A program made the position numbers and the translations under genes. Shown here in pieces: positions 6,008-35,502 of a stretch of 64,000 nucleotides of DNA. Origin of the DNA: Pseudomonadota bacterium. GTDB lineage: Bacteria; Bdellovibrionota_B; Oligoflexia; Oligoflexales; CAIMVM01. Below the pieces are notes generated by a model. That model saw only the letters and a list, made by a program, of their open reading frames with translations. It was not told where the DNA came from and searched no databases. The stretch's first letter is position 1. Each line of letters begins with the position of its first letter. The DNA lies in assembly GCA_037142195.1 (NCBI GenBank), contig JBAXBA010000002.1:1-64000 (forward strand), in the 5' to 3' direction.

Positions 6008-6063
6008 CAATTTTCTAATGAAAAATCGAAGGTCTGACTCCGGTCTTTAGCGCGGTCTCTACT

Positions 6064-6948
6064 TTATTCCGTAAACTTTAGATCCATGATTACTTCGATC
6101 CCTTCTTGCCAAGGATATACCTCTACCCCATCGGCTGTAACTCTTGCTTGCTCTTCCTGGCAAAGCACGAGTCGTCTTGCTCCAGGAAAATCACTCTTAG
6201 TATTTTTTAGTGCTTGAAAGTCATCACTCGTGAGATTCTTTGAAGATTTGATTTCCACAAGAAAGGTAACTTTTCCAGACATTTCAATTAGTAAGTCAAT
6301 CTCTAATCCGTCTGAAGTCTGTAAATAACTCAAGCGTATTTGTTTTTCTGAATAGGAAACTCGCCGATGTATCTCAGACATTAAAAAAGCTTCGAACACC
6401 TCCCCATAATAGGAGCTTCTAGGTGTTGGTTCAACATCTAGCAACTCAGCAAGAGATCGTTGTACTCCTATATCAAAAAAATAGAATTTAGGTGCGCTTC
6501 GTTGTCTTGATCGCACACTCCGATGATAGGAGTCTAGAAAAAATCCGACCAGGGTTTCTTCAAGAATAGAAAAATAGCGTTCGACGCTTTTAGCATCTAC
6601 CCCTGCATCACGTGCAATTTTTGAATAGTTAAGAGACCGCATGTGGGACATGGCTGCTACAGGAAGAAATTTTCGAAAGGGATCCATGTTCCGGACAAGC
6701 TGTTCCAGCTGTATTTCCTCTTTGAGATAAGTATGAGCATAACTCTTCAAAAATAGTTTGCAATCTCTAGGGTTATCGTAGGAAAGCACTTTGGGAAGTG
6801 TTCCAAACCGAAGGGCTCTTTCTAAATCAAAAGTTATTCCTATCTCCTTTTGACAAAGAGGATACAAATGAAACGAAAATGACCGTCCAGCAAGTAAGTT
6901 AGCTTGACCGCGTTTAAGCTTGCGCGCACTTGAGCCTGAAAGGGCTAA
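6064..6948 (-). pseudogene. 5'-truncated AAA_14-DUF4143 ATPase
   Basis: The frame extends upstream of ORF 6064..6867 only to ALSGSSARKLKRGQANLLAGR; stop at 6970-6972. Walker A/B are absent; KFYFFDIG and EIDL...VEIKS are retained. Confidence 0.8.
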
Positions 6949-7142
6949 AGCAGTTAACCCAAAACTTAATCAAACTTGAGCAATAAATAGGTTACGATCA
7001 GTAATTACTTGGGCGTCGATTTGGGCATAGCGGGGTCAAAACGTATTCAATGACCAGCTTCTTACCTTTGATTTTCAGGAGGTTGCCGGCTCTTCTCAAA
7101 GGTTTTACAGAAAAAAATTCCATGAGACATGAAAAACACTTG

Positions 7143-7176
7143 CAGTCAGAACCGTTATTATGTATGGTTCTGACTG
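7143..7176. promoter_or_regulatory. 11-bp perfect inverted repeat (orphan operator-like)
   Basis: CAGTCAGAACC-N12-GGTTCTGACTG with no intact gene adjacent. Confidence 0.5.
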
Positions 7177-7623
7177 ATTAGATTTTACATGCGAGCTTTC
7201 TCTTTCAAGTTACCTCAATAGCCAGGACAAAAGTATTACCGTCGAAAATCTGAGGGTTTCAGGAAGGCTTAAAAACCACAAGCTTTCAGGAGCGATTGCA
7301 GATCAAGATTTTTACGAACTGAAATGGCAGCTTGAATAGAAATCGAGGATGTATGGGAATAGGCGTTACCTGGCAGACAGGTTTTTCTAGGGCTCTGAAA
7401 CGCGCTCTACCTGCAGCCGCTTGGAATGGAGGATTTCAAATTATAGAGACTTAAATGCACCGCTTCACCTAAGAAATTTAATAAAAAATAGGACCAGCTA
7501 GGTCCGAATTCACGCCCAGGGAGATGACGGCTCTGGATTCTAGGAGTTTTTCCAAGGAGACAACTAGCATCGATGAAGTGGGAAATGAACAGTCAACTTG
7601 TTATGCACAAGTTTGCGTAAGTT

Positions 7624-7789
7624 TCATGTAGCGGAAGGATCAGCATAGTATCCTGATCCAAGCGCAATCAATTTGACGTCGGCAGCAATGCGCCGCAGAC
7701 TAGCCCCTGAAGCTACAAAGGTTTGGAGCTCGCGCGCGCATAACTCCATTTTTTTTAATAGTTTCAAATAGATCTAGTCTCTTTTTCAT
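7624..7789 (-). pseudogene. frameshifted, truncated AbiEi-type (type IV TA) antitoxin N-terminal wHTH
   Basis: MKKRLDLFETIKKNGVMRAR, a frameshift in a CG-dinucleotide run, then ELQTFVASGASLRRIAADVKLIALGSGYYADP, matching the AbiEi N-terminal pattern. SD GAGG upstream. Confidence 0.6.
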
Positions 7790-7810
7790 GTTTCTACGCC
7801 TCTTCCCAAT

Positions 7811-7858
7811 TGATAATATGTTACCACAATTTCATTTTTTTGTGGTAACATATTATCA
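7811..7858. promoter_or_regulatory. perfect 19-bp inverted repeat, AbiEi-type operator
   Basis: TGATAATATGTTACCACAA-N10-TTGTGGTAACATATTATCA, about 20 bp upstream of the AbiEi remnant. Confidence 0.7.
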
Positions 7859-8152
7859 TATCGACTTGTCGACCCTCTTAAACTCAAGAAAGCTTGAAAC
7901 AGACCTCTAAGAATTCCAAACCTAATCAGGGATTTAATCATAAGGTGAGCTTTGATCTTTTTGCAGTGATTGCTGAATTTCCTCTGAATGTACCACCCAA
8001 TTTCCTTGCATCATATACTAGCCGAGAGGCGGGTTTTGAGCCAATCGGAGTCGATGAAACCGACGAAGAGAAAAGGTAATTTCCACTTATAAATGATGGT
8101 GGAAATTCGGCTGCCAAGGCTCGAAAAGACTTGGGAACGACTGCCATAGCGG

Positions 8153-8527
8153 CTACAAAAAATGTTGCTCAAGCCAAGTGGTAATATCGGAAAGAATGGC
8201 TTTATTTTTGATCACTCTTTCGATTATAAAATCTTCCGCCTCGTCGGGATCGAAGTCTACCCTAACTCCATTCATCTCTAAAAAAATTAAAGTCGTTACT
8301 ATAGCAATTCGTTTATTTCCATCCACGAATCCGTGATTGGAAACCAGACTTTGCAGCAATGCAGCTGCTTGTTCCGAAAGCGAGTTGTAATATCCTGTCT
8401 GCGGTCTTCCAAGTGCAGAAGCCAACAGCCCTGGGTCCCGAAGACCAAGACTTCCACCATCAAGTGCAATCAATTGCTCGTGCAGTTTGATCACCTCGTC
8501 TAGGGTCGGGTATAACGTTGCCTTCAC
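8153..8527 (-). CDS. doc: Fic/Doc family death-on-curing toxin
   Basis: GLRDPGLLASALGRP and HGFVDGNKR Doc motif; coupled to the upstream small gene. Confidence 0.92.
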   Translation of the reverse strand: MKATLYPTLDEVIKLHEQLIALDGGSLGLRDPGLLASALGRPQTGYYNSLSEQAAALLQSLVSNHGFVDGNKRIAIVTTLIFLEMNGVRVDFDPDEAEDFIIERVIKNKAILSDITTWLEQHFL

Positions 8528-8736
8528 TTAGAAAGCCTTCTTACCAGTTCTCGGACGTTAGGATTACTCAACACTCGATCTGCTGCTTCAAGGAATACCG
8601 GACGAACGGCCACTCGATCTAGATACTGTTTCAGTGCTTCATTTACGACATCTTGTTTCTTGCGACCAGACTCTTTGACATACGAATCCAGTTTGTTTTT
8701 GACTGCGGAATCAATTTGGCTTGCAAACTTTTCCAT
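8524..8736 (-). CDS. ribbon-helix-helix antitoxin partner of Doc
   Basis: KFASQID...SGRKKQDVVNEALKQYL RHH pattern; 4-nt overlap with doc; SD GGGAGG. Confidence 0.8.
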   Translation of the reverse strand: MEKFASQIDSAVKNKLDSYVKESGRKKQDVVNEALKQYLDRVAVRPVFLEAADRVLSNPNVRELVRRLSK

Positions 8737-9109
8737 TAGGATCCTCCCCTTGCTTACAAGATCCTATCGGTAGACTATCATGAAATATCAAGAAAATTCT
8801 TGAAAAATATTATACTAATAAATACATATAGTTGGGCTTAGCCCACCCCCTGGAAAGCTTGCCGCTAAACTTTGGGGCTATCCGGAAAAGCTCGGCTTTC
8901 GAGGTGGGGAAGGGCTGGCCTTGGGTAAATGTGACACTCCATTCCAGGCTCTCATCATCCAAAAATGAAGCGCAGCTCAGACACAAAGACACTTGCGTTG
9001 GGATCCTCTAAATCCGTATCCCTATAACCATTTAAAATTACTCAAATTCCCACTTCATTGCGCAAATCTCAGCCTAGCAGTGGGAATATCATTAATAACA
9101 CAACCTTAC

Positions 9110-9370
9110 TTAAGATCTGATGACTTTTGACGTCATGAGTACCCTTAGGGAACTTGTGATTCCGCTTGCAGACTGGTCAAAGGATTTTTCTGGGAGCGAA
9201 TCAAGGTCTAGTCCATCAATCTTTGGCATCTTCATAAATTCTGACTCGGTAAGGCCCGAGCCAATGATAAGTGTATCAAAGAATTCTCTGCCAAAAATCT
9301 CTTGGTTCCTCCGAACCATATACTTCATTCTCTGGTCTCGAGGCATCCCCTAAAACGCGGAGGATGTGAC
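9110..9370 (-). pseudogene. fragment duplicate of the 35703..36080 MNT/BolA-like gene
   Basis: NQEIFGREFFDTLIIGSGLTESEF...DQSASGI is nearly the same as the 36-kb copy; the 5' part is missing. Confidence 0.8.
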
Positions 9371-9487
9371 TACGGAGCAAGCTAGTCACTTATTTCGGTT
9401 TGCCTTAAATCGACAACTAGAAGGAGCGTCATCAAAACAAGTCGAATAGGTCTCTCAATTTCGATGAGTTGATTTCATTTGATCGGC

Positions 9488-10747
9488 TTAGATGCCAAAT
9501 ACTTCATGAAAGAAATTCATTCTTTTCTTAATTTCTTCTTCTAGAACCTTTGAGGTCATCTGCTCAGGAAATCGTTCCTTAAAATCTTGAATCTCGATTG
9601 GCAGTCTTTGATCAAGTGCTGAAAATAGATTCTTTGCCTGCTTTGCTAGGAAATCATCATTAAGTCCTAAGTCTAAAGAAAATTTCTGGAAAGTTCTGGT
9701 TTTGAGTTTAAACCATAGGTTTTGCCCACCAATCTTAAAAGAAAATCTTTGTCCCACTTCCTTATAGATAGATGTGGATAATATGTCATAAAAAGGAGCA
9801 AGTCGGATGCCATTTGTGGTCTGCAAAAATGCTAGATTTTTGGAATGGGAGTCATTATTGCCAATGACCAGATTAAAAAGAAGCCATTTCAAGAGCTGAT
9901 TGAGATCTGGAATGGGGGATGCGCTATAACTTTTAATAAGTTCATAGTTATCTTTAAAAGTAGGTCCTCCCTCGGTTTCATATTTTTTAAGAGAGGTAAA
10001 TCCCTGTGCCTGACAAAAGTCTTGTTGATGAATGCGACATACCTTGCCTTTTTTGTCTATGAATCGGTCGAACCTTTGAGTGATGAAAAGTGGAAACTCC
10101 CCTTCGATAATATCTACATGTGGAACATGGAGACCTACAGCATTAGCAAGTTTCATGCAGAAATATTCGTTATATGGTGTATCGTGTGTAGATTTAAAGT
10201 TTCTTACAGCCGGCTTAATGATATGAGTCGTAGGAGTTCCATCGAGAGGTAGATAAATCTTTTTCTGCTCGTAAATGATAGCAAATTTGTCTTGTGCGCC
10301 AGCTAAAGAAAATTTGCCACCTTCGTGGTTCAAAATCTCATCGGCAAGACTTTTCTTGTCTTTTAAATAACCATAGATTGTAGATAGATTTAGCTCTTTT
10401 CTAGTCAACTTACTTTTGGAGAAAGAGATTTTTTCTGGTCTTATTTTGAAAGCCCCAGCACAATCTCCACCGAACTCCTTTAGAAATCCGAACTCAGTTT
10501 GAATACTGTTCTTGCCGTGTTCCTGGGTAAGAGCTCTTATGTTCCCTTCTGGCAATAGATTCTCAAAAAAGGACTTGGTTACCAAATGTCCAAAGGGCTT
10601 TTCTGAAAGAGGCATTGCGATCGAAAGGGGAAATCTGGATGGGTGTTTTAGCCATGAGGTGTCATATTCAAAACTGAGCCGCTCATCGCCATCAAAAATG
10701 AGAGCCCCTACCTCTAGTTCCTCGCAGTAGACAATAAGCTTATTCAT
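9488..10747 (-). CDS. hipA: HipA family kinase toxin (second copy)
   Basis: FFENLLPEG, FSLAGAQDK, NNDSHSKN, LAPFYD. Confidence 0.93.
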   Translation of the reverse strand: MNKLIVYCEELEVGALIFDGDERLSFEYDTSWLKHPSRFPLSIAMPLSEKPFGHLVTKSFFENLLPEGNIRALTQEHGKNSIQTEFGFLKEFGGDCAGAFKIRPEKISFSKSKLTRKELNLSTIYGYLKDKKSLADEILNHEGGKFSLAGAQDKFAIIYEQKKIYLPLDGTPTTHIIKPAVRNFKSTHDTPYNEYFCMKLANAVGLHVPHVDIIEGEFPLFITQRFDRFIDKKGKVCRIHQQDFCQAQGFTSLKKYETEGGPTFKDNYELIKSYSASPIPDLNQLLKWLLFNLVIGNNDSHSKNLAFLQTTNGIRLAPFYDILSTSIYKEVGQRFSFKIGGQNLWFKLKTRTFQKFSLDLGLNDDFLAKQAKNLFSALDQRLPIEIQDFKERFPEQMTSKVLEEEIKKRMNFFHEVFGI

Positions 10748-10971
10748 TTACTGCCTCTCTTACGAAGAACTAGTTCAAAACCCAAAAGTTTCGCAATCTT
10801 GATTAAGCTTGAAAGTTTTGGGTCATTTTCCTCTTTTTCAAGTTTTACAATCCCTACCCGGGACAGACCCGTGTAAGTGGCAAGATCTTCTTGTGTGACC
10901 TGCATCTCAGAGCGAAGTGCTTTAATAGTCGCTCCTATAGTTTTGGCATCCATTATAATAATTTCTTCCAT
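10744..10971 (-). CDS. hipB: HipB-like XRE HTH antitoxin
   Basis: LRSEMQVTQEDLATYTGLSRVGIVKLEK; ATGA-like overlap with hipA. Confidence 0.88.
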   Translation of the reverse strand: MEEIIIMDAKTIGATIKALRSEMQVTQEDLATYTGLSRVGIVKLEKEENDPKLSSLIKIAKLLGFELVLRKRGSK

Positions 10972-11025
10972 GTGTCCTCCAGTTTACATATGGTAGCACA
11001 TAGCCCGCCCGCCATCAAAAAGAAT

Positions 11026-11084
11026 CCTTCAGTATACTTTTAGGGTGAAAAAATGACTAGTTTCAGTGGAAAGTATACTAAAGG
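11026..11084. promoter_or_regulatory. inverted pair of 15-bp sites upstream of the second hipB
   Basis: CCTTCAGTATACTTT ... AAAGTATACTAAAGG, each containing the palindromic core AGTATACT. Confidence 0.5.
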
Positions 11085-18682: not shown

Positions 18683-19855
18683 TCAGAAATATTTATCAAA
18701 TCCACCTTTCCACAAGACTTCGATAAAATCTCGGTAATAGTAGTTTTCTACATCTCCATAGGGACTGAGCTTTGTGATAGTATCTCGAGATACAACTATT
18801 GCCTTTCTTATTTTTGGCTCTATTTTTAAAAGCGAGCTGATGCTTTTAAAATGCCTGCTATTGAGGCGTTCGCTTGATTTTACCTCGATAGCAAAGGTCT
18901 CACCTAAAATAAAATCTACTTCTGATCCAGATTTCGTCCTCCAATAATTCAAACTAAGATTCAATTTTCTCGTATATGAAATGTAAGCTCGGAGCTCTAG
19001 TGCAATAAGTTGCTCAAATTGATCGCCAAATTCCTTTGATTCTAGTTCGAGTGTAGAAAAACCTGCTAGATAATAGGAGACTCCACAATCAAAAAAATAG
19101 AATTTTGCCGTTGCTACTTGCTTTCGGCTTTTTAAACTATGTGCCGGCTCAACTTCAAATGCGATTAAAGTGTCTTTAAGAATCTGAAAATACTCTTTCG
19201 CCGTTGGACCACTAACCCCAGCGTCCGATGCAAATTGGGCATAGTTGACTTGTTGTCCATTGCAGAGAGCCGCACTTTTTAAAAATCGAGAAAAGGATTG
19301 TAGCTGTCGAATCTCGGATTCTCTTTGAATTTCTTCTTTCAAATACTCGCCACAATAGGCAGCAAGCTCTTCAAGAGGTTCGTCGGATAAGAAAGTCATG
19401 GGAAGACTTCCAAACTGTAATACTCGATTCAAGTCAAAATCATTTCCAACCTCATGTATAGTCAAGGGGAAAAGTTCGGCTCTTCTTGCTCTCCCACCAA
19501 GTAAATTAGATTGATTTTTAAATAGCTTTCGAGCACTGCTACCTGTTAATAGAAAATGAAGCTTTGAGTCGATAGAGACTAATCGATGCACCTCATTGAG
19601 AATATCAGGGATTCTTTGTACCTCATCAATGACCACTAATTTTTTGTCCGCTATCATTTGGCTAAGGTAAGTATTGTCTTGGAGTAGCCTCTGGTAAACT
19701 CTATCGTCCAAAAGATTTATAAGACAAAAGTCTTCACCGGCGAAACAATCTGCGATGAGCGTGGATTTGCCAGTACCTCTTGCACCAAAAAGAAAGTGGC
19801 TTCTTTTTTTCAATAGTTCAAGTAGGTTAACGGACCTTTGGAATTTTCTAGTCAT
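18683..19855 (-). CDS. AAA_14 + DUF4143 ATPase
   Basis: GARGTGKS, VIDEVQR, LTGSSARKL, KFYFFDCG, EVDF...IEVKS. Confidence 0.9.
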   Translation of the reverse strand: MTRKFQRSVNLLELLKKRSHFLFGARGTGKSTLIADCFAGEDFCLINLLDDRVYQRLLQDNTYLSQMIADKKLVVIDEVQRIPDILNEVHRLVSIDSKLHFLLTGSSARKLFKNQSNLLGGRARRAELFPLTIHEVGNDFDLNRVLQFGSLPMTFLSDEPLEELAAYCGEYLKEEIQRESEIRQLQSFSRFLKSAALCNGQQVNYAQFASDAGVSGPTAKEYFQILKDTLIAFEVEPAHSLKSRKQVATAKFYFFDCGVSYYLAGFSTLELESKEFGDQFEQLIALELRAYISYTRKLNLSLNYWRTKSGSEVDFILGETFAIEVKSSERLNSRHFKSISSLLKIEPKIRKAIVVSRDTITKLSPYGDVENYYYRDFIEVLWKGGFDKYF

Positions 19856-20234: not shown

Positions 20235-20413
20235 ATGCTTCAGAGCCAATAAATACATCACACCAGAATCTATGTAGTCCGGCCATGCGGCGCCACTGAA
20301 ACGAAAGTTGTTCAACTAGGCGAGAGAACTCGAAAATTAGGTTCGTCTCCGGCTTATGCATTCTTGTGCAATTAGCCTTGCCTTGTGCATTCTTGTGCAA
20401 TTAGCCTTGCCTT
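20235..20413 (+). repeat. copy of 33318-33480 (upstream region of the second Schlafen gene) including the 29-bp tandem
   Basis: cttcagagccaa.aaatacatcacaccagaatcta...cgccactgaaa...ttcgtctccggctt; CTT(A/G)TGCATTCTTGTGCAATTAGCCTTGC x2. Confidence 0.85.
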
Positions 20414-21145
20414 ACAGTCGCGCGTATCATGCAAGAACAAGCAGATGTTATAATAATCGCCGACTGCTGATTTAAACCTGATGCCGTCCGTATTTTCAGG
20501 TGCATTTTTCCTAAGCCAATGGGCCAGTATTTGGCTTGGTGCCGGATACTTAATATCAACCCATGTACCTGCCATGCTGGACATAGGCACGAGGTTAGCT
20601 ATGTTGGGGATTGCTGAGGAAAGACTTATCAAAACCGTATCTATATCAATAAGATTGAGAGCATCTGTTGTTGCGGCTTTTATTTCATAAGTGACTGCGG
20701 TTGACTTTGCCATACCCTCATCGCCGTATTCTTTGCGAACTCCATTTAAATCCTCGCATATATAAAGAGCAGATTTCTTGCGTCCCATATTGCCAAATTC
20801 TTTTACGGCCGTGGACGATGTTTGCGCTCCCCCAATATTGTAGCGACCACCATCACTTAAGGAGCCAGCCGTATCGAGAACATCGATAAGTCTACCAACC
20901 CTACGATAATACGTTTGACGGAAATATTGTTTAATCCAGTCGCTTTCAAAAGTCAGAGGTTCAAGAAGTTTAAAGAGATAGTTACTCTGCGACTGATTAA
21001 GTTTTGCTTCAGACTTCGTTACTTTTTCGACTCTTGTGAGTAGGATTCTGAAATATCGATAGTCCTTAAAAATATGATCACCACTGATTCCAGCGACGAT
21101 CAGGTCTTTCCCCGATATAAAAGCTTTTACAAGTTTACGAATCAT
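20372..21145 (-). CDS. RES-domain NAD+ phosphorylase-type toxin with N-terminal extension
   Basis: YRR, GGRYN, ALYIC..E, SQ.LA, DGIRFKSA, NICLF; downstream of a DUF2384-like gene. Confidence 0.8.
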   Translation of the reverse strand: MIRKLVKAFISGKDLIVAGISGDHIFKDYRYFRILLTRVEKVTKSEAKLNQSQSNYLFKLLEPLTFESDWIKQYFRQTYYRRVGRLIDVLDTAGSLSDGGRYNIGGAQTSSTAVKEFGNMGRKKSALYICEDLNGVRKEYGDEGMAKSTAVTYEIKAATTDALNLIDIDTVLISLSSAIPNIANLVPMSSMAGTWVDIKYPAPSQILAHWLRKNAPENTDGIRFKSAVGDYYNICLFLHDTRDCKARLIAQECTRQG

Positions 21146-21157
21146 AGCTCCTTATTT

Positions 21158-21556
21158 TTAAGCTGTCATTTCTTGTAGTTTAGCAATGACGCTTTCCGCT
21201 TCACCTGCCAATGCCTTCTCAAAAGGGGAGCGGCCAAAAAAGAGATGATTAGGAGACATGACCCAAAGAATGGTTTTCTCTTTGTCACCATCATGCAATT
21301 GAAATGCAAGGTCACTTATCATGACGAGACTAATGAGTCGTTCGCGAACCTTTTTGTCTATGATTGCTGATGGCTGATAAAGTTTAGGGCGCGAAATTTC
21401 AAGTGTCTCTGCAAGTTCTGTTAAAGGAAGACTTGTTAGTTCTGCTATCCGCTTAAACATATCTGTATTGATTTTGGTGAACGCAGAGTTTGTAGCAAAC
21501 CATTTGAGATGGTCGCTGACTTGTCCCGTATGTTCGATATAACTGGCATTTCTCAT
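21158..21556 (-). CDS. Xre/MbcA/ParS (DUF2384-like) antitoxin
   Basis: HTH (LTELAETLEISR) plus WVMSPNHLFFGRSP...GEAESV C-terminal toxin-binding pattern. Confidence 0.82.
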   Translation of the reverse strand: MRNASYIEHTGQVSDHLKWFATNSAFTKINTDMFKRIAELTSLPLTELAETLEISRPKLYQPSAIIDKKVRERLISLVMISDLAFQLHDGDKEKTILWVMSPNHLFFGRSPFEKALAGEAESVIAKLQEMTA

Positions 21557-21973: not shown

Positions 21974-22963
21974 TCAAGGTAAGGAGAGCCCATTAATCTT
22001 AAATTCAAGAGTTTTGATTTGGCTCAGGAGATCGGAGAAATCAGGAATTTCGCCATAGATCATGACTTGCATTTCTCTGTAGTCTCTTTCTAGCGAAGAA
22101 CGTATGTGTTCAGGGGGCAAGAGCCGCATAGTTCCAGGTTTGGCGAGATCATATCGGGCCCAGCCGCGAGGATAAAATCGCTCTTTGGACGCGACAACAG
22201 ATGCAAGTAAACTGAGATCGCTAAAAGCTGCCTCCTTTACGGGGGATTGGGCTAAACGCGCAAGATCATAGTAATGGCGCGAATAGCGATCCGGTTGAGT
22301 GTTTCCCTCTGGACGAAAGGCTTCATGGTGAAGAATAGTTGCCTTTTCCCAGAAAGTTCGTTCGGCCTTTATGCACTGCACATGGCATGTCTTCCTGTTG
22401 AATACATTCGGGAATTCCTCAGCACAGTAAGGTGTAATTTCATATTTTTCATTTGGTGTCCATATCGCCAATGGTCCGATTTCTAATCGTATCTCAGGCC
22501 TGATGTAAGTCTCAGCGAAAGAAGCTGGGTATTTCACAGAAATGACATTTGGGTCTTTTGGGTCAAGTTCAACCTTGACAACCGGCGCAAGGAGCTGAAT
22601 ACATAACGGTAGTAGCTGGTCCCGAATATAATCCTGTGCTGCTACTTGTAACTGTTTGTTGAATTGATCCTGTTTTGTTCTTGATCTCTTTGCCTCAGGG
22701 TCTTCGTTGGTTATTTCCTTCCAATCGAGGATGAGGTCTATATCTTCAGAGAAACGCTCGATAAGTCCAAACACTTTGGAAAGTGAAGTGCCGCCCTTGA
22801 ACAAGATTTTTCGTGCGAGGCTAGGATCGTCAAAGAGTTTCGCAATTGACCAGCACACCCAGAAGTCTTTTTCAGCGATGGCATTCGATAGGCCACGTCG
22901 GGTGGCGGTTTCACGAAAAAGTTCAGCACGATCTTTAGCTGGTAATGTCGCTATTTTATCCAT
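21974..22963 (-). CDS. AbiEii nucleotidyltransferase toxin
   Basis: EKDFWVCW, FKGGTSLSK...RFSEDIDL, ERTFWEK, SRHYYD; ATG at 22963 overlaps the upstream TGA. Confidence 0.92.
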   Translation of the reverse strand: MDKIATLPAKDRAELFRETATRRGLSNAIAEKDFWVCWSIAKLFDDPSLARKILFKGGTSLSKVFGLIERFSEDIDLILDWKEITNEDPEAKRSRTKQDQFNKQLQVAAQDYIRDQLLPLCIQLLAPVVKVELDPKDPNVISVKYPASFAETYIRPEIRLEIGPLAIWTPNEKYEITPYCAEEFPNVFNRKTCHVQCIKAERTFWEKATILHHEAFRPEGNTQPDRYSRHYYDLARLAQSPVKEAAFSDLSLLASVVASKERFYPRGWARYDLAKPGTMRLLPPEHIRSSLERDYREMQVMIYGEIPDFSDLLSQIKTLEFKINGLSLP

Positions 22964-23574
22964 CAATCTCCCCCCTGGCATATCTTGACTATAGCCGCAT
23001 GAATCCATCCAGTTGTGATTTTGGTGTCAATTAAAACTTTTCTAGACAGGCGAGGATCAAGCCAGTTTCGTATGGTCTCGATGGTATTAGCGTTAATTCT
23101 ATCAGAGCCAAGGGATTTTAGACCCTGAACTATGATCGAACTTTCTCTGTGGGCGAAGCCTGTTTCTTTTAAGGTCGTATGCTTGAAAACGATACTATTT
23201 TTTCCAATCTTAAACACGCGGTTTGGTCCGTCGGAAACATAGACAACCTGTCCTGGAACTTGGTCAGTAAGTCTCATAAGACTCAGTGCCGACGGGCCAT
23301 TGATTTGAATGCGCCATCCAAACTTTCGGGCAATAGCATTGGCTACTGCATCGAGATCGGGACTTAGCGGTTGTTTCAGTAATTCGCTGTATTGTGGCAA
23401 ATCGTAAATGCCACGGACAACACGCCTAATGGTTCCATTTTCGGCCAGGCGATGTAGGGCGCTATCCACGCTAGATCGGATTCCGAGGTGGCCAAAGTCC
23501 TTGCTGGAGAACGCCCAAGCAAAACCTTGGGCTGATATTGACCTAACTATTCGTTTTTCTAAAGAAATATTCAT
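22963..23574 (-). CDS. DUF6088 AbiEi-type antitoxin
   Basis: VDSALHRLAENGTIRRVVRGIYD.P, LTDQVP, YVSDGP; likely start ATG 23574 (MNISLEK). Confidence 0.88.
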   Translation of the reverse strand: MNISLEKRIVRSISAQGFAWAFSSKDFGHLGIRSSVDSALHRLAENGTIRRVVRGIYDLPQYSELLKQPLSPDLDAVANAIARKFGWRIQINGPSALSLMRLTDQVPGQVVYVSDGPNRVFKIGKNSIVFKHTTLKETGFAHRESSIIVQGLKSLGSDRINANTIETIRNWLDPRLSRKVLIDTKITTGWIHAAIVKICQGGD

Positions 23575-23591
23575 ATGTATACCACCATATC

Positions 23592-23623
23592 TTGCAAGAA
23601 ATATTATAACATTTTTCTTGCAA
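23592..23623. promoter_or_regulatory. 10-bp inverted repeat, operator candidate for the DUF6088 operon
   Basis: TTGCAAGAAA-N12-TTTCTTGCAA; decayed copies at about 5683-5713 and about 14824. Confidence 0.6.
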
Positions 23624-23704
23624 CAATACAGCAAAATTGGCTCCCTTGGAGAATGCCCAAAGGAAAGACATTTGGGCGAAGACCTAAACAATCACAAAAC
23701 GCAT

Positions 23705-29003: not shown

Positions 29004-30526
29004 GCATCACCTCGAGAAATTTTTTCAAGATAAGAAAATGAATTGGGACTAATGAGCACCCCGGAGAGACTATTTGGAATTTGAATACAGCTCTTTACGA
29101 AATTTACATGCCCTACATGATACATCGGTATCATGATAGATTCCTCGAAAATATCCCGGTCAAGTTCGCGATAGATCTCAAAGCGATCACTTAGATTAGG
29201 CAGTCCCATAGCGCGATGCAATAAATCAACATATAGAGGCTTAGTGTAAAAAAAGAATAGATTACCATCGCCTGGCAAAAATCTTCTAAAAACGGCGCCA
29301 GCATCCCTAGATGGAAATAGAAAAAGTTCAATGTATGCAGCAGTTTTTGGGTGACCTTCTCTAGGACTCATCTCTGCATAGCTCTTCTCATATTGAAAAT
29401 TTGCCTGAAGCCCCACACTTGCCATGGCCTTTGTAATACGCTCTTGATCACATGTGGATGCACGTCCTATGTGTTCGTAAATGGTTACAATTGAGTCTGC
29501 CGCCGACAACTTGGGAAAACTAAGAGCCTTTTGTGTAGACGATATATTAGGTTTTTTGTTAAGGCTTCCACCTATACCGGGTGGGATAAAGCCAATTGCA
29601 GATGTGGTCCCTGGGGAGCACTGTTCGATCTTTTGTATGTCGCTAATTTGGCGGTGAAGCTCCTGCCTTCTATTTTTGTCTTTAAATGCTGCAAATTTTG
29701 GGTTGACCACAAGAGTTTGGGTAACAGACGCAGAGTGAAAGTGCTTATTATAGGCTGCAGAGTGAATTTTAGCTCCCGTGGAGGATAGATACATAGCCGC
29801 GACATCGACCGTGCCTGCGTCTAATGTTTGGGCAATATTTTTTTCATCGTAATAGCGAAAAGTAATTTTATCATGTTTCGCTTCTTTGGGGGTTCTCTTC
29901 ATGAATTCGTTGGGCACGACTGTAGCCTCATTGGCTAATTTGGAGTCGACCCGGTAGGGACCACTTCCAATAGTTGATCCATTTGAAGCAATTTTGAATA
30001 CAGAAACGTTCAGAGATGCTATTCGATACAAAAAACTACTTGGATCAAACTTTAATTGAAAAATCACCGAAGTTCGGTCCGTAGACTCCCTGATTCCCAC
30101 AGCATTTGAATTGCCCTCAATACACCCAGCCAAATCATCTAGAAGGTCACGAATGCGACTTTCCTTCGAGCACAGAATCTGAAATGAACGAACGATGTCT
30201 GCAGTGGTAACATTACTGCCATCAGAAAATTTATGCTTAGGGCGAATGACAACGCTCAATTCCTTATGTGATCGATCGAATGTCCATGATTCAGCTAATT
30301 CAGGGGCAATCGCACCATCCTCATTCAACTTAAAAAGTCCTTCATAGATGAGTGACAAAATAAAACGTTCCTGAGCGATAGCAACTTTTTGCGGCTCAGT
30401 ATTTAGGATAGGATTTGGTATGGCAACAAGCAAATTGTCTTGACCTTGTTTTTTAGCCAACGCAGCGCTGGAAATAAAATAGAATACCCAAATCACGAAC
30501 AATTTTTTTCGGCTAAACATCCTCAT
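28994..30526 (-). CDS. family-5 (OppA/DppA-like) solute-binding protein with no cognate ABC permease/ATPase
   Basis: Signal peptide, IYEGLFKL...IAPELAESW, KFSDGSNVTTADIVRSF, GSGPYRV. Confidence 0.88.
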   Translation of the reverse strand: MRMFSRKKLFVIWVFYFISSAALAKKQGQDNLLVAIPNPILNTEPQKVAIAQERFILSLIYEGLFKLNEDGAIAPELAESWTFDRSHKELSVVIRPKHKFSDGSNVTTADIVRSFQILCSKESRIRDLLDDLAGCIEGNSNAVGIRESTDRTSVIFQLKFDPSSFLYRIASLNVSVFKIASNGSTIGSGPYRVDSKLANEATVVPNEFMKRTPKEAKHDKITFRYYDEKNIAQTLDAGTVDVAAMYLSSTGAKIHSAAYNKHFHSASVTQTLVVNPKFAAFKDKNRRQELHRQISDIQKIEQCSPGTTSAIGFIPPGIGGSLNKKPNISSTQKALSFPKLSAADSIVTIYEHIGRASTCDQERITKAMASVGLQANFQYEKSYAEMSPREGHPKTAAYIELFLFPSRDAGAVFRRFLPGDGNLFFFYTKPLYVDLLHRAMGLPNLSDRFEIYRELDRDIFEESIMIPMYHVGHVNFVKSCIQIPNSLSGVLISPNSFSYLEKISRGDACK

Positions 30527-31815
30527 GCCAATGCACCCTCGACTGTTTTAGTCTCGTCTTCATCAAGTTGTTCGCGTAGTTCAGGGTTTTCTATTATCAT
30601 AAGTGCAATTTCCCTCTCCTTGGATATCTGTTTTGACTCACCATATAGCCTAGTCAGCTCGATAAGTGGACTTAAAGCTAAATTGTCAGCTTTTGCAGAT
30701 GCTAGAAATGACCGTTCAGCAGCGCCCAGGTCTCCTAAGTTTTTTTCACATTGCCCCTGTAGATGTAAGTTCATGGCCGTGGCAGGAGGACCTAATGATG
30801 CTGCTTGTTTAAAATGAACGAGTGCTTTTTCGTGATTTTTTATTTTGCAAAAATGCAAACCTAATTCGCTATGGGACGTTGAGTCATAGGGATCCAAATG
30901 AGACATTTGTGAAAAGGCTGCGACCGCTTGATCTGTATCATTACGTGAGAGGTAGAGCTTAGCAAATGATTGCCACAAAGTGGCTTGTAACTCATCTCGA
31001 AGTGTGGACCAAGGTTTATTCTCAGTGTTGATCATTTGAGAGGCTTGTAGAGCACGATCCATTAACTTTAGGACTGAGTCGTACGACAATCCTGGTGTCA
31101 TGGCAAGACCCCTTAAAGCTGTCGACCACTTGAGGGCTTGCCCCCAATCTTTTGGCGAAAATTTGAGCCAACTGTCGAGATTGGAAAGAATCGCAGCTGC
31201 GTGTTTACGAGCGTGAATCTGGCCGCGTTCGAATCGGGATGACACGACTACAATGCGTGCTATAAGCGAAATATGTTCGAGCAGTAAGGCATTATCAACG
31301 GTGGAAGCCATCTCGGCAAGATTTTCAAGTTTGCTAAACGAAGCTGAAATGCCAAGATCTAAATCTAGTATTTGGAAAAGAAGTGCTCGTTGGCTTTCGT
31401 ATTTGAAGAATATAGTTGAACTTGCATCTGTGGACTTAAAAGCTCGAATTTCTTCTATAAGTCCATATCGAGCAAGCACAGCCATCAAAGGAATTAGAAC
31501 GGAATCTACGTGATAAGAGTCACAAGGTAAATGTGCTACAGATGATGCAGCATCCGCCAGTCGCTTTCGAAATGACTTTAGTTCGGTGGCAGCTTCCGCA
31601 TTTTCTAATCGATCTATTTCGTGAAAAAATTCCGGGTTTGGAATTCTTTGGGGAAATGAAATGTCTTTTGCGCGCCCAGCAAGTAATCCCTCGATTCCAT
31701 TTACGTGAGACCAAAACCAGGCAAAGAACTCGGAATTCCGAGTGGAATAGGAGCTCGAATATCCGCAATATCCAGGCGTAATATTTGAAAAATTCGCATT
31801 TATTAAAGGCAACAA
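30523..31815 (-). CDS. tetratricopeptide-repeat protein with uncharacterised N-terminal half
   Basis: C-terminal TPR-like repeats (AVAAFSQMSHLDPYDSTSHSELGLHF, ALVHFKQAASLGP); TTG start after GGAGAG; ATGA overlap with the SBP gene. Confidence 0.78.
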   Translation of the reverse strand: MLPLINANFSNITPGYCGYSSSYSTRNSEFFAWFWSHVNGIEGLLAGRAKDISFPQRIPNPEFFHEIDRLENAEAATELKSFRKRLADAASSVAHLPCDSYHVDSVLIPLMAVLARYGLIEEIRAFKSTDASSTIFFKYESQRALLFQILDLDLGISASFSKLENLAEMASTVDNALLLEHISLIARIVVVSSRFERGQIHARKHAAAILSNLDSWLKFSPKDWGQALKWSTALRGLAMTPGLSYDSVLKLMDRALQASQMINTENKPWSTLRDELQATLWQSFAKLYLSRNDTDQAVAAFSQMSHLDPYDSTSHSELGLHFCKIKNHEKALVHFKQAASLGPPATAMNLHLQGQCEKNLGDLGAAERSFLASAKADNLALSPLIELTRLYGESKQISKEREIALMIIENPELREQLDEDETKTVEGALA

Positions 31816-31864
31816 ATACTCTCCATTTAGTCTTCAGTCTATGAGAGGAATTTTGGGTTCAGGA

Positions 31865-31884
31865 AGGGGGACTGTAGTCCCCCT
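31865..31884 (-). terminator. GC-rich hairpin between the small ORF and the TPR gene (attenuator or stability hairpin)
   Basis: AGGGGGAC-TACA-GTCCCCCT on the minus strand; no long U-tract, so read-through is plausible. Confidence 0.55.
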
Positions 31885-31918
31885 CTTGGCTATTGCCATG
31901 CTCCTACCGGTATTACTT

Positions 31919-31969
31919 TTAAGTACCTGCGTAGTTTGCGCCGGCAGCTTTCCGTTTAGACTTAAACAT
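31919..31969 (-). CDS. candidate 16-aa peptide MFKSKRKAAGANYAGT (not in the ORF track)
   Basis: SD AAGGAG (31982-31977) 7 nt before ATG 31969; ends TAA AAG TAA. In-frame upstream ATGs at 31975 and 32017 lack a well-spaced SD. Confidence 0.55.
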   Translation of the reverse strand: MFKSKRKAAGANYAGT

Positions 31970-32107
31970 TATCATTCTCCTTTCTGTTTTCCCATTGTTT
32001 GACTTGAGGTCTTTCATGCACTGAGCTGGTGTTTCGCTGGCCCATAAATTGAGGCCTTTGAAAGCTGAGTACTTTGAAAAACCGCAAAAACTCACAACGA
32101 TCCAAAG

Positions 32108-32122
32108 GCAATCTCCGTGCCA
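32108..32122 (-). promoter_or_regulatory. sigma-54 (-24/-12) promoter
   Basis: TGGCACG-GAGA-TTGC on the minus strand, matching the consensus TGGCACG-N4-TTGC and pointing into the peptide/TPR operon. Confidence 0.72.
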
Positions 32123-32229
32123 CTAGTTTTTTCACTGGCAACCCCTCGAAACCACGTCCAAACCTAGTATAGCGGGTGCTCCAAAACTCTAAATTCGTCC
32201 CGGCCGTGGTACAAAATCTTTTCATTTGC

Positions 32230-32472
32230 CTAGAATATGGGCAAAAGTGGTAAATAAATGGACCCACAGGGATAAGCGAGGCCATCAAAGACTAGGCGAT
32301 CCGATATGTCTTTCGGAGAATCCTCAAGCAAGGCCTTTAAAACTCCAAACACGGCGTAATCTTTCCATACTATTTCACTGGAAATCCCCAGCGCATCTGC
32401 AGTATTCAAAGTGGCATCATGGATTTTTTCATCTAAAAAGAGTGAGCCAAAGTTGGACATTAGGGACTCCAT
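32230..32472 (-). pseudogene. truncated AbiEii toxin
   Basis: TADALGISSEIVWKDYAV...RLVF then diverges (DGLAY) where KGGTSL is expected. Confidence 0.75.
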
Positions 32473-32487
32473 CCGGAAGATATTTGG

Positions 32488-33150
32488 TCAATTCAAATGA
32501 AAAACAAATTCCAGATTCCTAATGGCTTTCCGCCCCTTCTGACCACCAAGACGTGTACATATATCGCGCAAGCAACTTCGACTTATGAAGTTGATTTTAA
32601 GGAAGCGCTTAAAGCCAAGAGCTACCTCAGCACTCGATTCATTGCCTATTTTGTCAAGAGAGACGAGTGCTAGATATGACTTGAGCTCGCTATCGCTTAA
32701 ATCCTGGTACTTCTCCATTGGCACCGTAACAACCTTCAAGGCTTTCGAATTTCCAGGAAAACGCACGGGAGCTATAAATGATTTCTGTACTGGAACTTGG
32801 GTGGTTAAAGCCATCTCATAGAAAAGCGTTGCTCCCACGGGTATCAATCGGTTGATTCGAATACGCTCATTCCCAAACGATGCTTGATCACGGGCCCGCT
32901 TCTCCAAAAGAAGCTTTTGCAAAACCGCCTCATCCGAAGCACGACTTGGGCCTACCAACGTCTCCTTAGGAAGGTAATACATTCCCCTGGAGTAGCGCTT
33001 GATCTTCGACTGAGCCTCCAAGCGGGAAAGTGCCCGCTGCACTGTGCCTGCTGAAAAGCGAGGAATCGCCACATCCCTCCAGCTGAAAACTGACCCTGAT
33101 TTAAATTCTCTTATTTTATTGAGGACTTGACGAGAACACAAACCGCGCAT
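32488..33150 (-). CDS. DUF6088-like AbiEi antitoxin
   Basis: TVQRALSRLEAQSKIKRYSRGMYYLPK, LTTQVP. Confidence 0.8.
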   Translation of the reverse strand: MRGLCSRQVLNKIREFKSGSVFSWRDVAIPRFSAGTVQRALSRLEAQSKIKRYSRGMYYLPKETLVGPSRASDEAVLQKLLLEKRARDQASFGNERIRINRLIPVGATLFYEMALTTQVPVQKSFIAPVRFPGNSKALKVVTVPMEKYQDLSDSELKSYLALVSLDKIGNESSAEVALGFKRFLKINFISRSCLRDICTRLGGQKGRKAIRNLEFVFHLN

Positions 33151-33437: not shown

Positions 33438-33506
33438 CTTGTGCATTCTTGTGCAATTGGCCTTGCCTTGTGCATTCTTGTGCATTATGATCTCCCTTGT
33501 GCAATT
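33438..33506. repeat. 29-bp period tandem (about 2.4 units) upstream of the second Schlafen gene
   Basis: CTTGTGCATTCTTGTGCAATTGGCCTTGC / CTTGTGCATTCTTGTGCATTATGATCTCC / CTTGTGCAATT. Confidence 0.85.
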
Positions 33507-33551
33507 AGCAGTGACGAATTTCTAGAAGGGCATACTGGAAAGGAATCTTCG

Positions 33552-34901
33552 ATGTTTGGAAAAGAGATGCTTGGAAAAGAGATGCTTGACCGAGAGTCAA
33601 AAACACTGGAGTACAAGCGGGAATTACCCTCGAATCTGGCGGGCATAATTAAGACATGCGTCGCATTTTCTAATACTGCCGGCGGCCGCATTGTTCTAGG
33701 GGTTGAAGATGAAAACCGGAGTGTGATTGGCCTGACCGATAGGGAGATGGAAAAGGCGCTCGAGATCTTAGCTTCAGCTATTTACGAGGCAGTAACGCCA
33801 GCTGTTGTAGCCGAGGTGTTTAACCTGACCATTGATGAAAAGCATCTGATCATTGTTGACGTCGCTCGGGGCAGCAGTCCTCCTTATTTTGTCAAACGGC
33901 TTGGATCGACGAAAGGTGTTTTTGTTCGAGTAGGACCAACAACTCGACCCGCCTCACTGGAACACATTCACGAGTTAATGAGTTTTCGAAGTCGATACTC
34001 TTTTGATGAGGAATCCCTCCAGGGCTCAATGGATGAAATTGATGCAGGACTCATAGAGCAGGCATATGGCCGTTCTCCAAGTCGTGAGCTCTTGATGTCG
34101 GAAAAGGTGTTGTTAAAATCCGTTCAGAATCAGCCCGCCTTGTCGCTGGCAGCCATGGTCGCTTTCGGAAAACGACCTGACAGACAAATCCCGGAAGCGG
34201 CGGTTATCTGCACGCGATTTCAAGGAACATCGGGACGAGACATTATCGAGTCCAGCGAGATCCACGGGCCAATCTCCGATTTGACATCGCGTGTACTCGA
34301 TTTTCTTCAGCGGCATTTGGAAAGAAACTTTAAATTGCGCGGCGCAAAGCTCAGCGGAATGGAATTGATACCTTTAGCCGCTTTACGCGAGGCGGTTGTC
34401 AACGCATTGATTCATCGAAAATACAATGTTCCCTCTCCTGTTAAGGTGGCAGTCTTTGACAATCGTGTAGAGATTTTTAGCCCGGGAGGACTTCCAGGCC
34501 TGATCACGTTAAAGCAGCTGGGTGACGGGAGCAGCCATTTGCGCAACCCTCTTCTTGCAAAGTTCGCAAGACGCCTCAGGATCATGGAAAAACTTGGCTC
34601 CGGAGTTCGCGTGATGCTTGAAGAGTGTCAAAAACGGGGCATCGTGCCGCCCGAGTTTTTTGAAGATGGCGATTACGTAAAAGTTGTGTTCGGCACCGAG
34701 CGGAGTCAGCAAAACGCCCATGAGCTATCAAGCGTTATCGCGGACTTGTTCCTAAGGCAGCAAATAGTTCGAGTGAGCGAAATCTCAAAATGTGTAAAGG
34801 TATCTCGAAATACAATTACCAATGCTCTAAATCGGTTGCTCGAGGAGGGCAAGATATCAAGGCATGGCAAAGGCGCGGGCACCTACTACACGCGAACGTG
34901 A
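33552..34901 (+). CDS. Schlafen/AlbA_2 - HATPase/RecG C-terminal - wHTH protein (intact)
   Basis: ESKTLEYKR, AFSNTAGGRIVLGVED, ALREAVVNALIHRKY, MEKLGSG, C-terminal wHTH. Start is 33552, 33567 or 33582 (15-bp tandem). Confidence 0.88.
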   Translation: MFGKEMLGKEMLDRESKTLEYKRELPSNLAGIIKTCVAFSNTAGGRIVLGVEDENRSVIGLTDREMEKALEILASAIYEAVTPAVVAEVFNLTIDEKHLIIVDVARGSSPPYFVKRLGSTKGVFVRVGPTTRPASLEHIHELMSFRSRYSFDEESLQGSMDEIDAGLIEQAYGRSPSRELLMSEKVLLKSVQNQPALSLAAMVAFGKRPDRQIPEAAVICTRFQGTSGRDIIESSEIHGPISDLTSRVLDFLQRHLERNFKLRGAKLSGMELIPLAALREAVVNALIHRKYNVPSPVKVAVFDNRVEIFSPGGLPGLITLKQLGDGSSHLRNPLLAKFARRLRIMEKLGSGVRVMLEECQKRGIVPPEFFEDGDYVKVVFGTERSQQNAHELSSVIADLFLRQQIVRVSEISKCVKVSRNTITNALNRLLEEGKISRHGKGAGTYYTRT

Positions 34902-35064: not shown

Positions 35065-35502
35065 GTGAAAAATATGATACGAAGTGAAACAGAATATCAA
35101 AAAGCTATTGGGCGAGTTAAGAATGAAAAAGAACTCATTGAAAAAGCCAAAAAAAATCTAAAAAACAAAGGGTTAAAATCAAAAGAAATAGAGAGAGCTT
35201 TAAACCCCTTGCTGTCTTTCACAGCGCAGTTAGAAGAAGAAATAGAAACCTACGAAAAAATTAAAAGAGGTGATTTCGAAACCATTGAAAACTTCGATGG
35301 ATTAGGTCGATCTTTGATTGCCTTACGTATAAACAAAAATATGTCCCAAAAAGATCTGGCGGATAAACTAAAAATTGCAGAGTCGCAGATTTCTCGTTAT
35401 GAAAAGAATGAGTACCGAGGCATTTCCATGGAACGAGTCAACGAAATATTAAACGCTCTTCATGCAAAAGCGGTTACAAAATTTGAAATTCTTGTGGCTT
35501 GA
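35065..35502 (+). CDS. XRE-family HTH protein, HigA-like orphan antitoxin/regulator
   Basis: MIRSETEYQKA N-terminus; LIALRINKNMSQKDLADKL...ISRYEKNEY. Confidence 0.8.
   Translation: MKNMIRSETEYQKAIGRVKNEKELIEKAKKNLKNKGLKSKEIERALNPLLSFTAQLEEEIETYEKIKRGDFETIENFDGLGRSLIALRINKNMSQKDLADKLKIAESQISRYEKNEYRGISMERVNEILNALHAKAVTKFEILVA

Follow-up and report, generated by a model that had tools for sequence, protein, structure and literature searches.

The locus considered here raises the question whether an open reading frame (ORF) of only 16 codons can be a genuine peptide gene and, if it is, what its product might do in the operon that follows it. The ORF lies on the minus strand of a 64,000-nucleotide stretch of DNA (positions 1 to 64,000 of contig JBAXBA010000002.1, GenBank assembly GCA_037142195.1), hereafter called the window, which comes from a bacterium of the order Oligoflexales in the phylum Bdellovibrionota_B. 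A preliminary description, made from the letters of the window alone, had proposed that the ORF encodes a leader/core precursor peptide that is the target of a methyltransferase, and that a hairpin keeps the precursor mRNA in excess over the enzyme genes. The comparisons presented below suggest that the ORF is very probably a real peptide gene under selection on its amino-acid sequence. It heads an operon of six genes, which encode the peptide, a tetratricopeptide repeat (TPR) protein, a solute-binding protein (SBP), an O-methyltransferase (OMT), a probable transporter of the major facilitator superfamily (MFS) type and a membrane histidine kinase, with the hairpin placed directly after the peptide gene. 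These six genes are referred to as the cassette.

The signals around the small ORF are all present as first described. The Shine-Dalgarno sequence (SD) AAGGAG is separated by 7 nucleotides (nt) from the ATG at 31969-31967, the 16 sense codons occupy 31969-31922, and the TAA at 31921-31919 is followed by AAG and by a second TAA at 31915-31913. The stem-loop of 8 GC-rich base pairs (bp) that lacks a U-tract is found 34 nt beyond the stop codon of the ORF. The product, MFKSKRKAAGANYAGT, is a hydrophilic and basic peptide of 16 residues with neither a hydrophobic segment nor a signal sequence, and its gene is located upstream of the gene for the TPR protein.

Only three independent loci exist for comparison: the window, L003 (in genome G037) and L041, a metagenome record. 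In all three of them, which are the loci where the TPR gene is intact, a small ORF with a strong SD stands upstream of the TPR gene or its homologue. At L003, AAGGAG, a spacer of 5 nt and ATG precede the peptide MKFKSKRKSTGADYTH; at L041, TAGGAG, a spacer of 6 nt and ATG precede the peptide MFKSKRKPSGANYTTGA. In both cases the TPR homologue follows directly, the one at L041 being 38% identical. The TPR proteins at the three loci are 31-38% identical to one another; the small peptides are near-identical. The core kept across the loci is FKSKRK-xx-GA-[N/D]-Y-[A/T], and 11 of its 13 residues are conserved. The Tyr is invariant in the three peptides and the Asn position is occupied by N, N and D. 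The C-terminal tails differ in both length and sequence (AGT, TTGA and TH), the last residues being T, A and H. A longer in-frame reading of 58 residues, which would start with a GTG at 32095, was rejected: in-frame stops occur 12 nt before the ATG in L041 and 9 nt before it in L003.

In each of the three pairwise comparisons, the 13 shared codons differ at 4 first positions, at 0 second positions and at 6-8 third positions. The three-way DNA alignment has 23 columns identical in all loci out of 36 in the ungapped ORF block, 6 out of 34 upstream and 17 out of 98 downstream. This codon-position pattern and the confinement of identity to the ORF block, with diverged flanks on both sides, constitute a protein-coding signature. 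The preliminary description had expected codon-pattern conservation at homologous loci, and this expectation agrees with the observed differences. It had also allowed for the ORF and SD being lost while the downstream genes are kept; both are retained wherever the TPR gene is intact.

Pattern searches point in the same direction. A degenerate 33-nt DNA pattern, derived from the window and L003 peptides, matched in two of the 131 genomes of the phylum, at the window and G037 loci alone, and a reversed-pattern control gave no match. A 36-nt version had exactly one match in a metagenome contig collection, which is L041 and lies directly upstream of the TPR homologue; a pattern scan of viral contigs gave none. 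The search of the small-ORF region against Rfam returned no meaningful family, the best match being a microRNA model with an E-value of 0.89. A chance ORF inside a non-coding leader or a small RNA might be considered, as the reading frame has just 16 codons and is unannotated, and a 188-nt contig from RNA libraries (described below) could be a small RNA. Chance is nearly excluded, however, by the absence of second-position differences against 6-8 third-position ones, by the retention of SD and ATG in three loci out of three between flanks that are not conserved, by the uniqueness of the pattern to these loci in the 131 genomes and the metagenome collection, and by the lack of any Rfam family.

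The transcript is predicted to fold, downstream of the small ORF and ahead of the TPR gene, into a hairpin with arms AGGGGGACT and AGTCCCCCT, for which RNAfold gives 8 pairs and a 4-nt loop. The sequence that follows it is UUCCUGAACCC, so there is no U-tract, and the terminator scan of the window did not call the hairpin at 31884-31865. The RNAfold bracket string contains extra pairings from about 11 nt past the stop, and the 110-nt stretch has a z-score of -2.28. The hairpin of L041 has 15 bp and a z-score of -4.35, none of 200 shuffles being as good; that of L003 has 8 bp, a z-score of -2.22 and a T-rich tail and is called terminator-like, which makes it the only one of the three with such a tail or call. 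The presence of a stable hairpin after the ORF, noted originally for the window, is thus a feature of all three loci; its position ahead of the next gene is held, though its sequence is not. Counted on the sequences and folds, the gap that separates stop codon and core hairpin measures 34 nt in the window; it is about 33 nt at L003 and 13 nt at L041. A sigma-70-like promoter (10/12) is found 34 nt before the small-ORF ATG in L003. The promoter scan of the window gave a single site at 32193-32166 (9/12), a yield not above that of shuffled sequences.

Two metatranscriptome runs, both from one sample, each contain one 188-nt contig from this region (X8, 31889-32076; X9, 31888-32075), with no differing letter. 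Besides the SD and the small ORF, the contigs include the 5' flank and 30 nt beyond the stop; they end 4-5 nt short of the hairpin. They hint at a short transcript, but carry neither strand nor true ends, and carry-over of DNA is possible. Between 30400 and 32400 the two runs have no contig on the TPR gene or the upstream flank; absent cover of this kind proves nothing, and no step-down is inferred from it. A DNA run of a different study (X2) contains a 9149-nt contig which has 82 differences from the window over 30400-32400 and one 1-nt deletion (31847). With 82 differences over this interval the strain is about 96% identical, and it is probably the source of protein P0001.

The arrangement of ORF and hairpin gives rise to the main rival explanation, in which the two together form a translation-coupled attenuator. 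The operon would then sense, methylate and transport a small aromatic compound, and the released leader peptide would have no function of its own. The tiny ORF followed by a stable hairpin before the structural genes at all three loci, the terminator-like character of the L003 hairpin, and the ends of the RNA-library contigs just before the window hairpin are all in agreement with such a leader. However, the stop-to-hairpin distance is not kept and the hairpins have no sequence in common; accordingly, the single-sequence folds reveal neither a conserved geometry of ribosome and hairpin nor a conserved alternative pairing. A T-tail, moreover, occurs in one hairpin out of three. The retention of 11 of the 13 core residues, at loci whose neighbouring proteins are 31-38% identical, exceeds in strength and evenness what a codon-run leader would require, although conservation can be a property of arrest peptides too, and the operon has no amino-acid biosynthesis genes which a Lys/Arg-rich leader might sense. 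Two further observations that favour the leader come from the relatives of the OMT and from genomes that have lost the peptide, and one that disfavours it comes from the way in which the peptide was lost; they are described below. On balance, the likelihood of a mere regulatory leader appears low.

The five genes downstream of the small ORF overlap by 4, 10, 14 and 4 nt (Table 1). These overlaps, and the Pfam assignment of one of the products, bear out that the small ORF heads an overlapping operon containing an O-methyltransferase. The only Pfam and NCBIfam domains in the cassette are TPR, SBP_bac_5, Methyltransf_2 and the kinase domains.

Table 1. Coordinates of the small ORF, its signals, the cassette genes and the flanking modules (window numbering unless stated)
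Feature	Position	Strand	Basis or remark
Shine-Dalgarno sequence AAGGAG	31982-31977	minus	read from sequence
Spacer AATGATA, 7 nt between SD and ATG	31976-31970	minus	
Small ORF, 16 codons + TAA, product MFKSKRKAAGANYAGT	31919..31969	minus	codon comparison, DNA alignment, pattern searches
G+C-rich hairpin (8-9 bp), no U-tract, between small ORF and TPR gene	31865..31884	minus	RNAfold
Stretch covered in two metatranscriptome runs by a single 188-nt contig each	31888..32076		contigs carry no strand
TPR-superhelix protein, 430 residues	30523..31815	minus	predicted cytoplasmic and all-helical; TTG start, GGAG 8 nt upstream
Family-5 solute-binding protein, 510 residues	28994..30526	minus	PF00496
S-adenosylmethionine-dependent O-methyltransferase, ASMT/COMT/DnrK type, 414 residues	27759..29003	minus	PF00891
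Probable MFS-type transporter, 402 residues	26564..27772	minus	ESM Atlas and hydrophobic segments
Hybrid histidine kinase, 662 residues	24579..26567	minus	HisKA, HATPase_c, receiver domain
Segments differing between G001 (L042) and the window	L042 259-1472, 2711-2732, about 4207-4209; window 32287-30491, 27755-26642		
DUF6088 of the upstream module	32488-33150	minus	with 80-residue remnant 32230-32472
Complete DUF6088 + AbiEii pair	22963-23691, 21974-23008	minus	

The TPR protein, the first of the five, is predicted by AlphaFold2 (mean confidence, pLDDT, 83) to be helical throughout, and it has no hydrophobic segment. Pfam TPR matches are restricted to its C-terminal third, and no catalytic domain was recognised in it. 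The best structural matches of the model are peptide-binding TPR superhelices, namely Pins/LGN (Z-scores 18.7 and 18.3, about 295 residues aligned) and RapI (16.1, 270 residues); a peptide-bound phage Rap scores 14.0 and the Rap of pLS20 scores 13.0. Values below about 13 are common for helical repeats. Many unrelated TPR proteins score 13-15, and designed TPRs also score high. The matches therefore indicate the type of fold and not the family, because generic TPR proteins reach the same range. There is no Rap/NprR-type family match in Pfam or NCBIfam, and the ESM Atlas returned generic TPR clusters only.

The match to RapI nevertheless brings to mind the RRNPP (Rap/Phr) systems of Firmicutes and phages, in which a cytoplasmic TPR superhelix stands by a small peptide gene, an OppA-family protein and a phosphorelay. 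According to a second rival explanation, the cassette would work as a Rap/Phr-like intracellular switch: the unmodified peptide would be the ligand of the TPR protein, which would modulate the phosphorelay between kinase and receiver, and the OMT, SBP and MFS protein would serve another ligand. The alignments with the three Rap structures, the peptide gene adjoining the TPR gene in three loci out of three, and the OppA-family binding protein and receiver-bearing kinase in the cassette are consistent with this. The features which define the Rap/Phr arrangement are different here. A secreted pro-peptide with a signal, encoded downstream of its receptor, was not found; the peptide has no secretion signal, and its gene lies upstream of the TPR gene. 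The cassette lacks genes for an Opp permease or its ATPase, and the organism has an outer membrane. With Pins/LGN and designed TPRs scoring as high as Rap or higher, and with no match at the family level, such a switch is quite improbable.

The SBP gene overlaps the TPR gene by 4 nt. The protein matches PF00496 with an E-value of 1.2e-23 and 84.3 bits, against a cut-off of 32.4, and has distant matches to NikA and OppA. Its N-terminus, MRMFSRKKLFVIWVFYFISSAALA followed by KK, contains a signal-like hydrophobic segment, as do its four homologues, which makes five loci out of the five read, and from this segment the SBP is predicted to be probably secreted. The family profile above its cut-off is thus combined with a putative export signal, as expected of an SBP_bac_5 protein. 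Neither the gene list nor Pfam revealed an ABC permease, an Opp permease or an ATPase gene in the cassette.

The OMT matches PF00891 with an E-value of 1.2e-18 and 67.7 bits, against a curated cut-off of 22.3, and its sequence matches in the PDB are phenol OMTs (plant OMTs, ASMT and COMT). The motifs LDxGGGxGQ, ILGWILHDW, VLE and GGKERT are kept in all four cassette OMTs, the S-adenosylmethionine (SAM) motif of the window protein being LDVGGGIGQ. Residues H326, D327 and W328 are invariant in nine aligned sequences out of nine, and the His of this HDW motif is presumably the catalytic base, as in the family generally. The structural model has a pLDDT of 84.6, and its top Foldseek matches are ASMT, DnrK and MmcR at E-values of about 1e-15. 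Profile, SAM motif, HDW motif and modelled fold together assign the protein to the Methyltransf_2 phenol O-methyltransferases. All of its neighbours, in structure as well as in sequence, act on aromatic hydroxyls of small molecules, a point that also speaks for the attenuator explanation.

Two features set the cassette OMTs apart. They give no match to the dimerisation domain PF08100, which nearly all generic relatives show, and the model places two additional long helices (residues 6-48) N-terminal to the usual winged-helix dimerisation region. PADLOC found nothing in the cassette save a weak mad2 match to the methyltransferase core of the OMT, at an E-value of 5e-4.

The 402-residue protein encoded after the OMT has no match in Pfam or NCBIfam. 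Its ESM Atlas feature score is 0.99, the Atlas model aligns to MFS clusters with TM-scores of 0.71-0.83, and there are about 12 hydrophobic segments; a search of representative proteins gave 56 matches with E<=1e-3, of which 2 reach E<=1e-30. The last gene, which shares 4 nt with the MFS gene, encodes the kinase, in which two membrane segments enclose a loop of about 100 residues. The genome encodes LpxC, and an outer membrane and a periplasm are therefore expected.

By combining these observations, it is possible to propose a mechanism in some detail. With a net charge of about +5, the peptide (FKSKRKxxGA[N/D]Y...) would be translated in the cytoplasm from a short transcript, for the most part ended or else stabilised at the hairpin, and read-through past the hairpin would supply the five protein genes. 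The TPR superhelix might bind the extended peptide as a scaffold, a chaperone or a receiver. The OMT would then methylate the hydroxyl of the invariant Tyr13, and the MFS carrier would take the peptide through the inner membrane into the periplasm, where the OppA-like SBP would capture it and signal via the sensor loop of the kinase. The result would be an autoinduction circuit, as in lantibiotic and pheromone operons. As a whole this scheme, in which a precursor or pheromone peptide is held by the TPR protein, methylated on Tyr, exported by the MFS carrier and sensed by the SBP-kinase pair, is put forward tentatively, its chance of holding in every part being somewhat short of even. What the sequences show is the gene with its conservation and coding signature, the hairpin, the composition of the operon, the predicted locations of its proteins and a contig from RNA libraries over the ORF; that the TPR protein binds the peptide, that the peptide is methylated and at which site, which way it is transported and that the SBP and kinase sense it are inferred.

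The preliminary description had named the Tyr hydroxyl, the Asn and the C-terminal carboxyl as possible methylation targets. Of these, Tyr is the likeliest acceptor, because the Asn varies to Asp and could not be O-methylated and because the C-terminal tail varies; the invariance of the Tyr in all three peptides and the phenol-type OMT with its HDW motif agree with this choice. The proposed division of the peptide into leader and core found no support, both halves being conserved and no protease being seen in the cassette. The view of the locus as a precursor gene with its enzyme operon has fared better in part: a real gene heads an OMT operon, a hairpin follows it, and the RNA contigs fit a short precursor transcript. 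That the peptide is a substrate of the OMT and that the hairpin sets the mRNA ratio are at this stage suppositions; all structural neighbours of the enzyme act on small aromatic molecules.

Several observations weigh against the scheme of a methylated and sensed peptide. Every neighbour of the OMT uses small aromatic molecules and not peptides. Neither Pfam nor NCBIfam finds in the cassette a class-defining enzyme for peptides that are made on ribosomes and modified after translation (RiPPs), a RiPP recognition element (RRE) domain or a protease. What likens the TPR model to Rap and LGN is common to TPR superhelices in general. The RNA evidence amounts to two unstranded contigs from one sample, in libraries that may contain DNA, and the comparison of the peptides rests on three independent loci. 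The SBP, OMT and kinase genes, moreover, persist in two genomes in which the peptide, TPR and MFS genes are missing or damaged, and a related core exists in a third (see below), so the OMT need not depend on the peptide.

A more specific version of this mechanism would make the peptide an unprocessed autoinducer: a 16-mer, O-methylated on Tyr by a small-molecule-type OMT which the TPR protein directs to it, exported by the MFS carrier and read by an orphan OppA-like SBP and a kinase, all in a bacterium with an outer membrane. This version is unlikely in its full form. If it were true, it would define a new class of RiPP or pheromone in which a TPR protein is the recognition element, and the two genomes that keep the sensing half, G001 and G040, would be eavesdroppers.

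The same layout of precursor, tailoring enzyme, transporter and two-component sensor could also be that of a bacteriocin operon. The peptide would in this case be a cationic antimicrobial, the MFS protein would act as exporter and immunity pump, and the SBP and kinase would form a sensor for autoinduction of the kind known from lantibiotic operons. The peptide is both short and, with 4 Lys/Arg among its 16 residues, strongly basic; it is encoded in a variable island flanked by toxin-antitoxin modules, and its distribution is patchy, with any form of the cassette in four of the 131 genomes of the phylum. However, neither half of the peptide is amphipathic or hydrophobic, and Pfam and NCBIfam reveal no dedicated immunity protein or protease, which leaves an antimicrobial function very doubtful. 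The comparison with autoinduced lantibiotics of the nisin type extends to the precursor, the hairpin, the tailoring and transport genes, and a histidine kinase that might sense the product. It fails for LanB, LanC and LanM, the ABC exporter and the protease, none of which the cassette possesses; sensing, moreover, would go through an orphan periplasmic binding protein. The Rap/Phr-like switch and the cationic bacteriocin are lesser rivals than the leader peptide.

The cassette is very rare. A search of 61 related genomes for the TPR protein gave two relatives, in G037 and G040, the G040 gene having 205 codons; weak, generic TPR matches, with E-values of 1e-8 or worse, occur in 26 further genomes. 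A profile search of 5.8 billion proteins gave two relatives of the TPR protein, along with two generic TPR proteins, and a single-sequence search gave two relatives; these word-index searches may miss distant ones. The same profile search gave about six relatives of the OMT subtype, after which the E-values jump from 3e-29 to 2e-16, where the generic OMTs begin. Scanning metagenome contigs with the TPR alignment A1 produced 227 pattern matches and no relative, and the scan of genome contigs produced nothing beyond the G037 contig. OMT matches in G120 and G130 cover about 80 residues at E-values of 1e-11 to 1e-12.

In G037 the gene order is the same as in the window, and the kinase has no receiver domain. 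G001, which belongs to the same genus as the window (locus L042, G001:C228), has SBP, OMT and kinase genes that are 94-96% identical to those of the window at the DNA level. Its MFS gene has been cleanly deleted, leaving a remnant of 25 codons, and the 1.8-kb segment with the peptide and TPR genes is replaced by 1.2 kb, which encode an 85-residue ORF and a Fic/DOC protein. The SBP of G001 reads in two frames, possibly as a result of a frameshift or an assembly error. In G040 (L034, G040:C249) the TPR gene is cut to its C-terminal 205 codons (4158-4775), with unrelated sequence upstream, and the MFS gene is reduced to a 45-codon remnant (1255-1413); the SBP (51% identical) and the OMT are intact. 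The peptide pattern was not found in G040, where only 125 nt lie between the truncated TPR gene and the contig end. Judged from these sequences, G040 looks like a second, independent decay of the peptide, TPR and MFS parts.

A more distant locus (L050, G103:C109) is found in one of 33 genomes of another family of the same class. Its core at 5946-11083 encodes an SBP_bac_5 protein, 30% identical to the SBP of the window over the full length, an OMT, kinase fragments and a response regulator, and it has neither a TPR nor an MFS gene. About 120 nt upstream of this SBP gene, GAGG, a spacer of 6 nt and ATG precede a small ORF (5771-5827) with the product MKQKFESVRVPSGSGNTL. It resembles FxSxRxPSG of the L041 peptide and contains no Tyr. 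As a candidate relative it was set aside and serves as a lead only: a three-sequence hidden Markov model gave it 2.0 bits and rank 16 of 756 six-frame pieces. If this weak candidate is a relative after all, Tyr is not universal in the peptides, which would count as a further point against Tyr methylation.

Since the peptide, TPR and MFS genes are lost or broken together in G001 and G040, they tend to go together. These loci are read here as an older core of SBP, OMT and kinase and a set of peptide, TPR and MFS genes that travel as one. The joint loss is the observation that argues against the attenuator explanation. The existence of the SBP-OMT-kinase core without the peptide in G001 and, probably, in G040 is in turn in its favour.

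A close parallel to a very small gene beside a methyltransferase is the cittilin pathway of Myxococcus xanthus, which consists, according to published accounts, of a precursor CitA, a P450 CitB and a methyltransferase CitC, the latter acting only on the already cyclised tetrapeptide (bioRxiv 10.1101/2020.05.25.114512; PMC11285071). Both systems have a very small precursor gene beside a SAM-dependent methyltransferase, which in the cittilin pathway acts on a Tyr-derived peptide and in the cassette would do so, and adjacent transporter genes. Among the five proteins of the cassette, in contrast, Pfam shows no P450 or other cross-linking enzyme. Compared with what is described of cittilin, the cassette adds a TPR protein, a predicted secreted SBP and a histidine kinase, and its precursor has 16-17 residues with both halves conserved.

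The microcin C operon contains the heptapeptide gene mccA, an intergenic hairpin, the ThiF-like adenylyltransferase MccB and the MFS pump MccC. Its hairpin gives a short, abundant transcript alongside read-through, and its precursor ends in Asn. The tiny first ORF, the hairpin directly after it and an MFS exporter, putative in the cassette, are common to both systems. The cassette differs in having no ThiF/MccB-like domain, in its peptides ending in T, A and H, and in containing the OMT, the TPR protein and the sensing pair instead.

For the sensing half, the nearest likeness is to sensor kinases that depend on a binding protein, such as ChiS of Vibrio with its chitin-binding protein and LuxQ with LuxP. 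There too, a periplasmic SBP with no transporter of its own stands beside a membrane hybrid kinase with a periplasmic loop. The difference would lie in the ligand: by this analogy the operon itself would encode it, as a ribosomal peptide.

The cassette belongs to none of the cittilin, microcin C, RRNPP and lantibiotic systems. It does share the general mark of a RiPP precursor locus, namely a short peptide gene that is clustered and conserved with a tailoring enzyme, in all three intact loci, and it is best read as a precursor or pheromone peptide operon of unusual make-up. No description of a cassette like this turned up in a full-text literature search by combinations of its genes, which covers one collection of papers and those word combinations only.

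Standard annotation overlooks genes of 16 codons, and the small ORF is a case of one that can be shown to be real by comparison alone and tied to a defined, very rare cassette of six genes. If the peptide is both substrate and signal of the cassette, a phenol O-methyltransferase of the small-molecule type would be acting on a ribosomal peptide, the cassette would represent signalling by a methylated-tyrosine peptide in outer-membrane bacteria, where such systems are scarce, and TPR proteins would be suggested as partners for peptide recognition in RiPP-like pathways. The cassette is small enough for full heterologous expression.

The surroundings of the cassette are those of a variable island. 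It is bracketed by toxin-antitoxin modules of the AbiEi/AbiEii type (window 32230-33150 and 21974-23691, minus strand). The nearest gene relic upstream of the small ORF is a truncated AbiEii remnant of 80 residues (32230-32472), and the G001 counterpart of this remnant matches the N-terminus of AbiEii. Other genes of the island type are located nearby. On the kinase side these are an AAA_14/DUF4143 ATPase (18683-19855) and a protein with a RES domain (20372-21556), which has a small ORF upstream; on the other side, a Schlafen/AlbA_2 and HATPase_c_4 protein whose C-terminus carries an HTH (33441-34901, plus strand) is accompanied by an HTH_3 protein (35065-35502).

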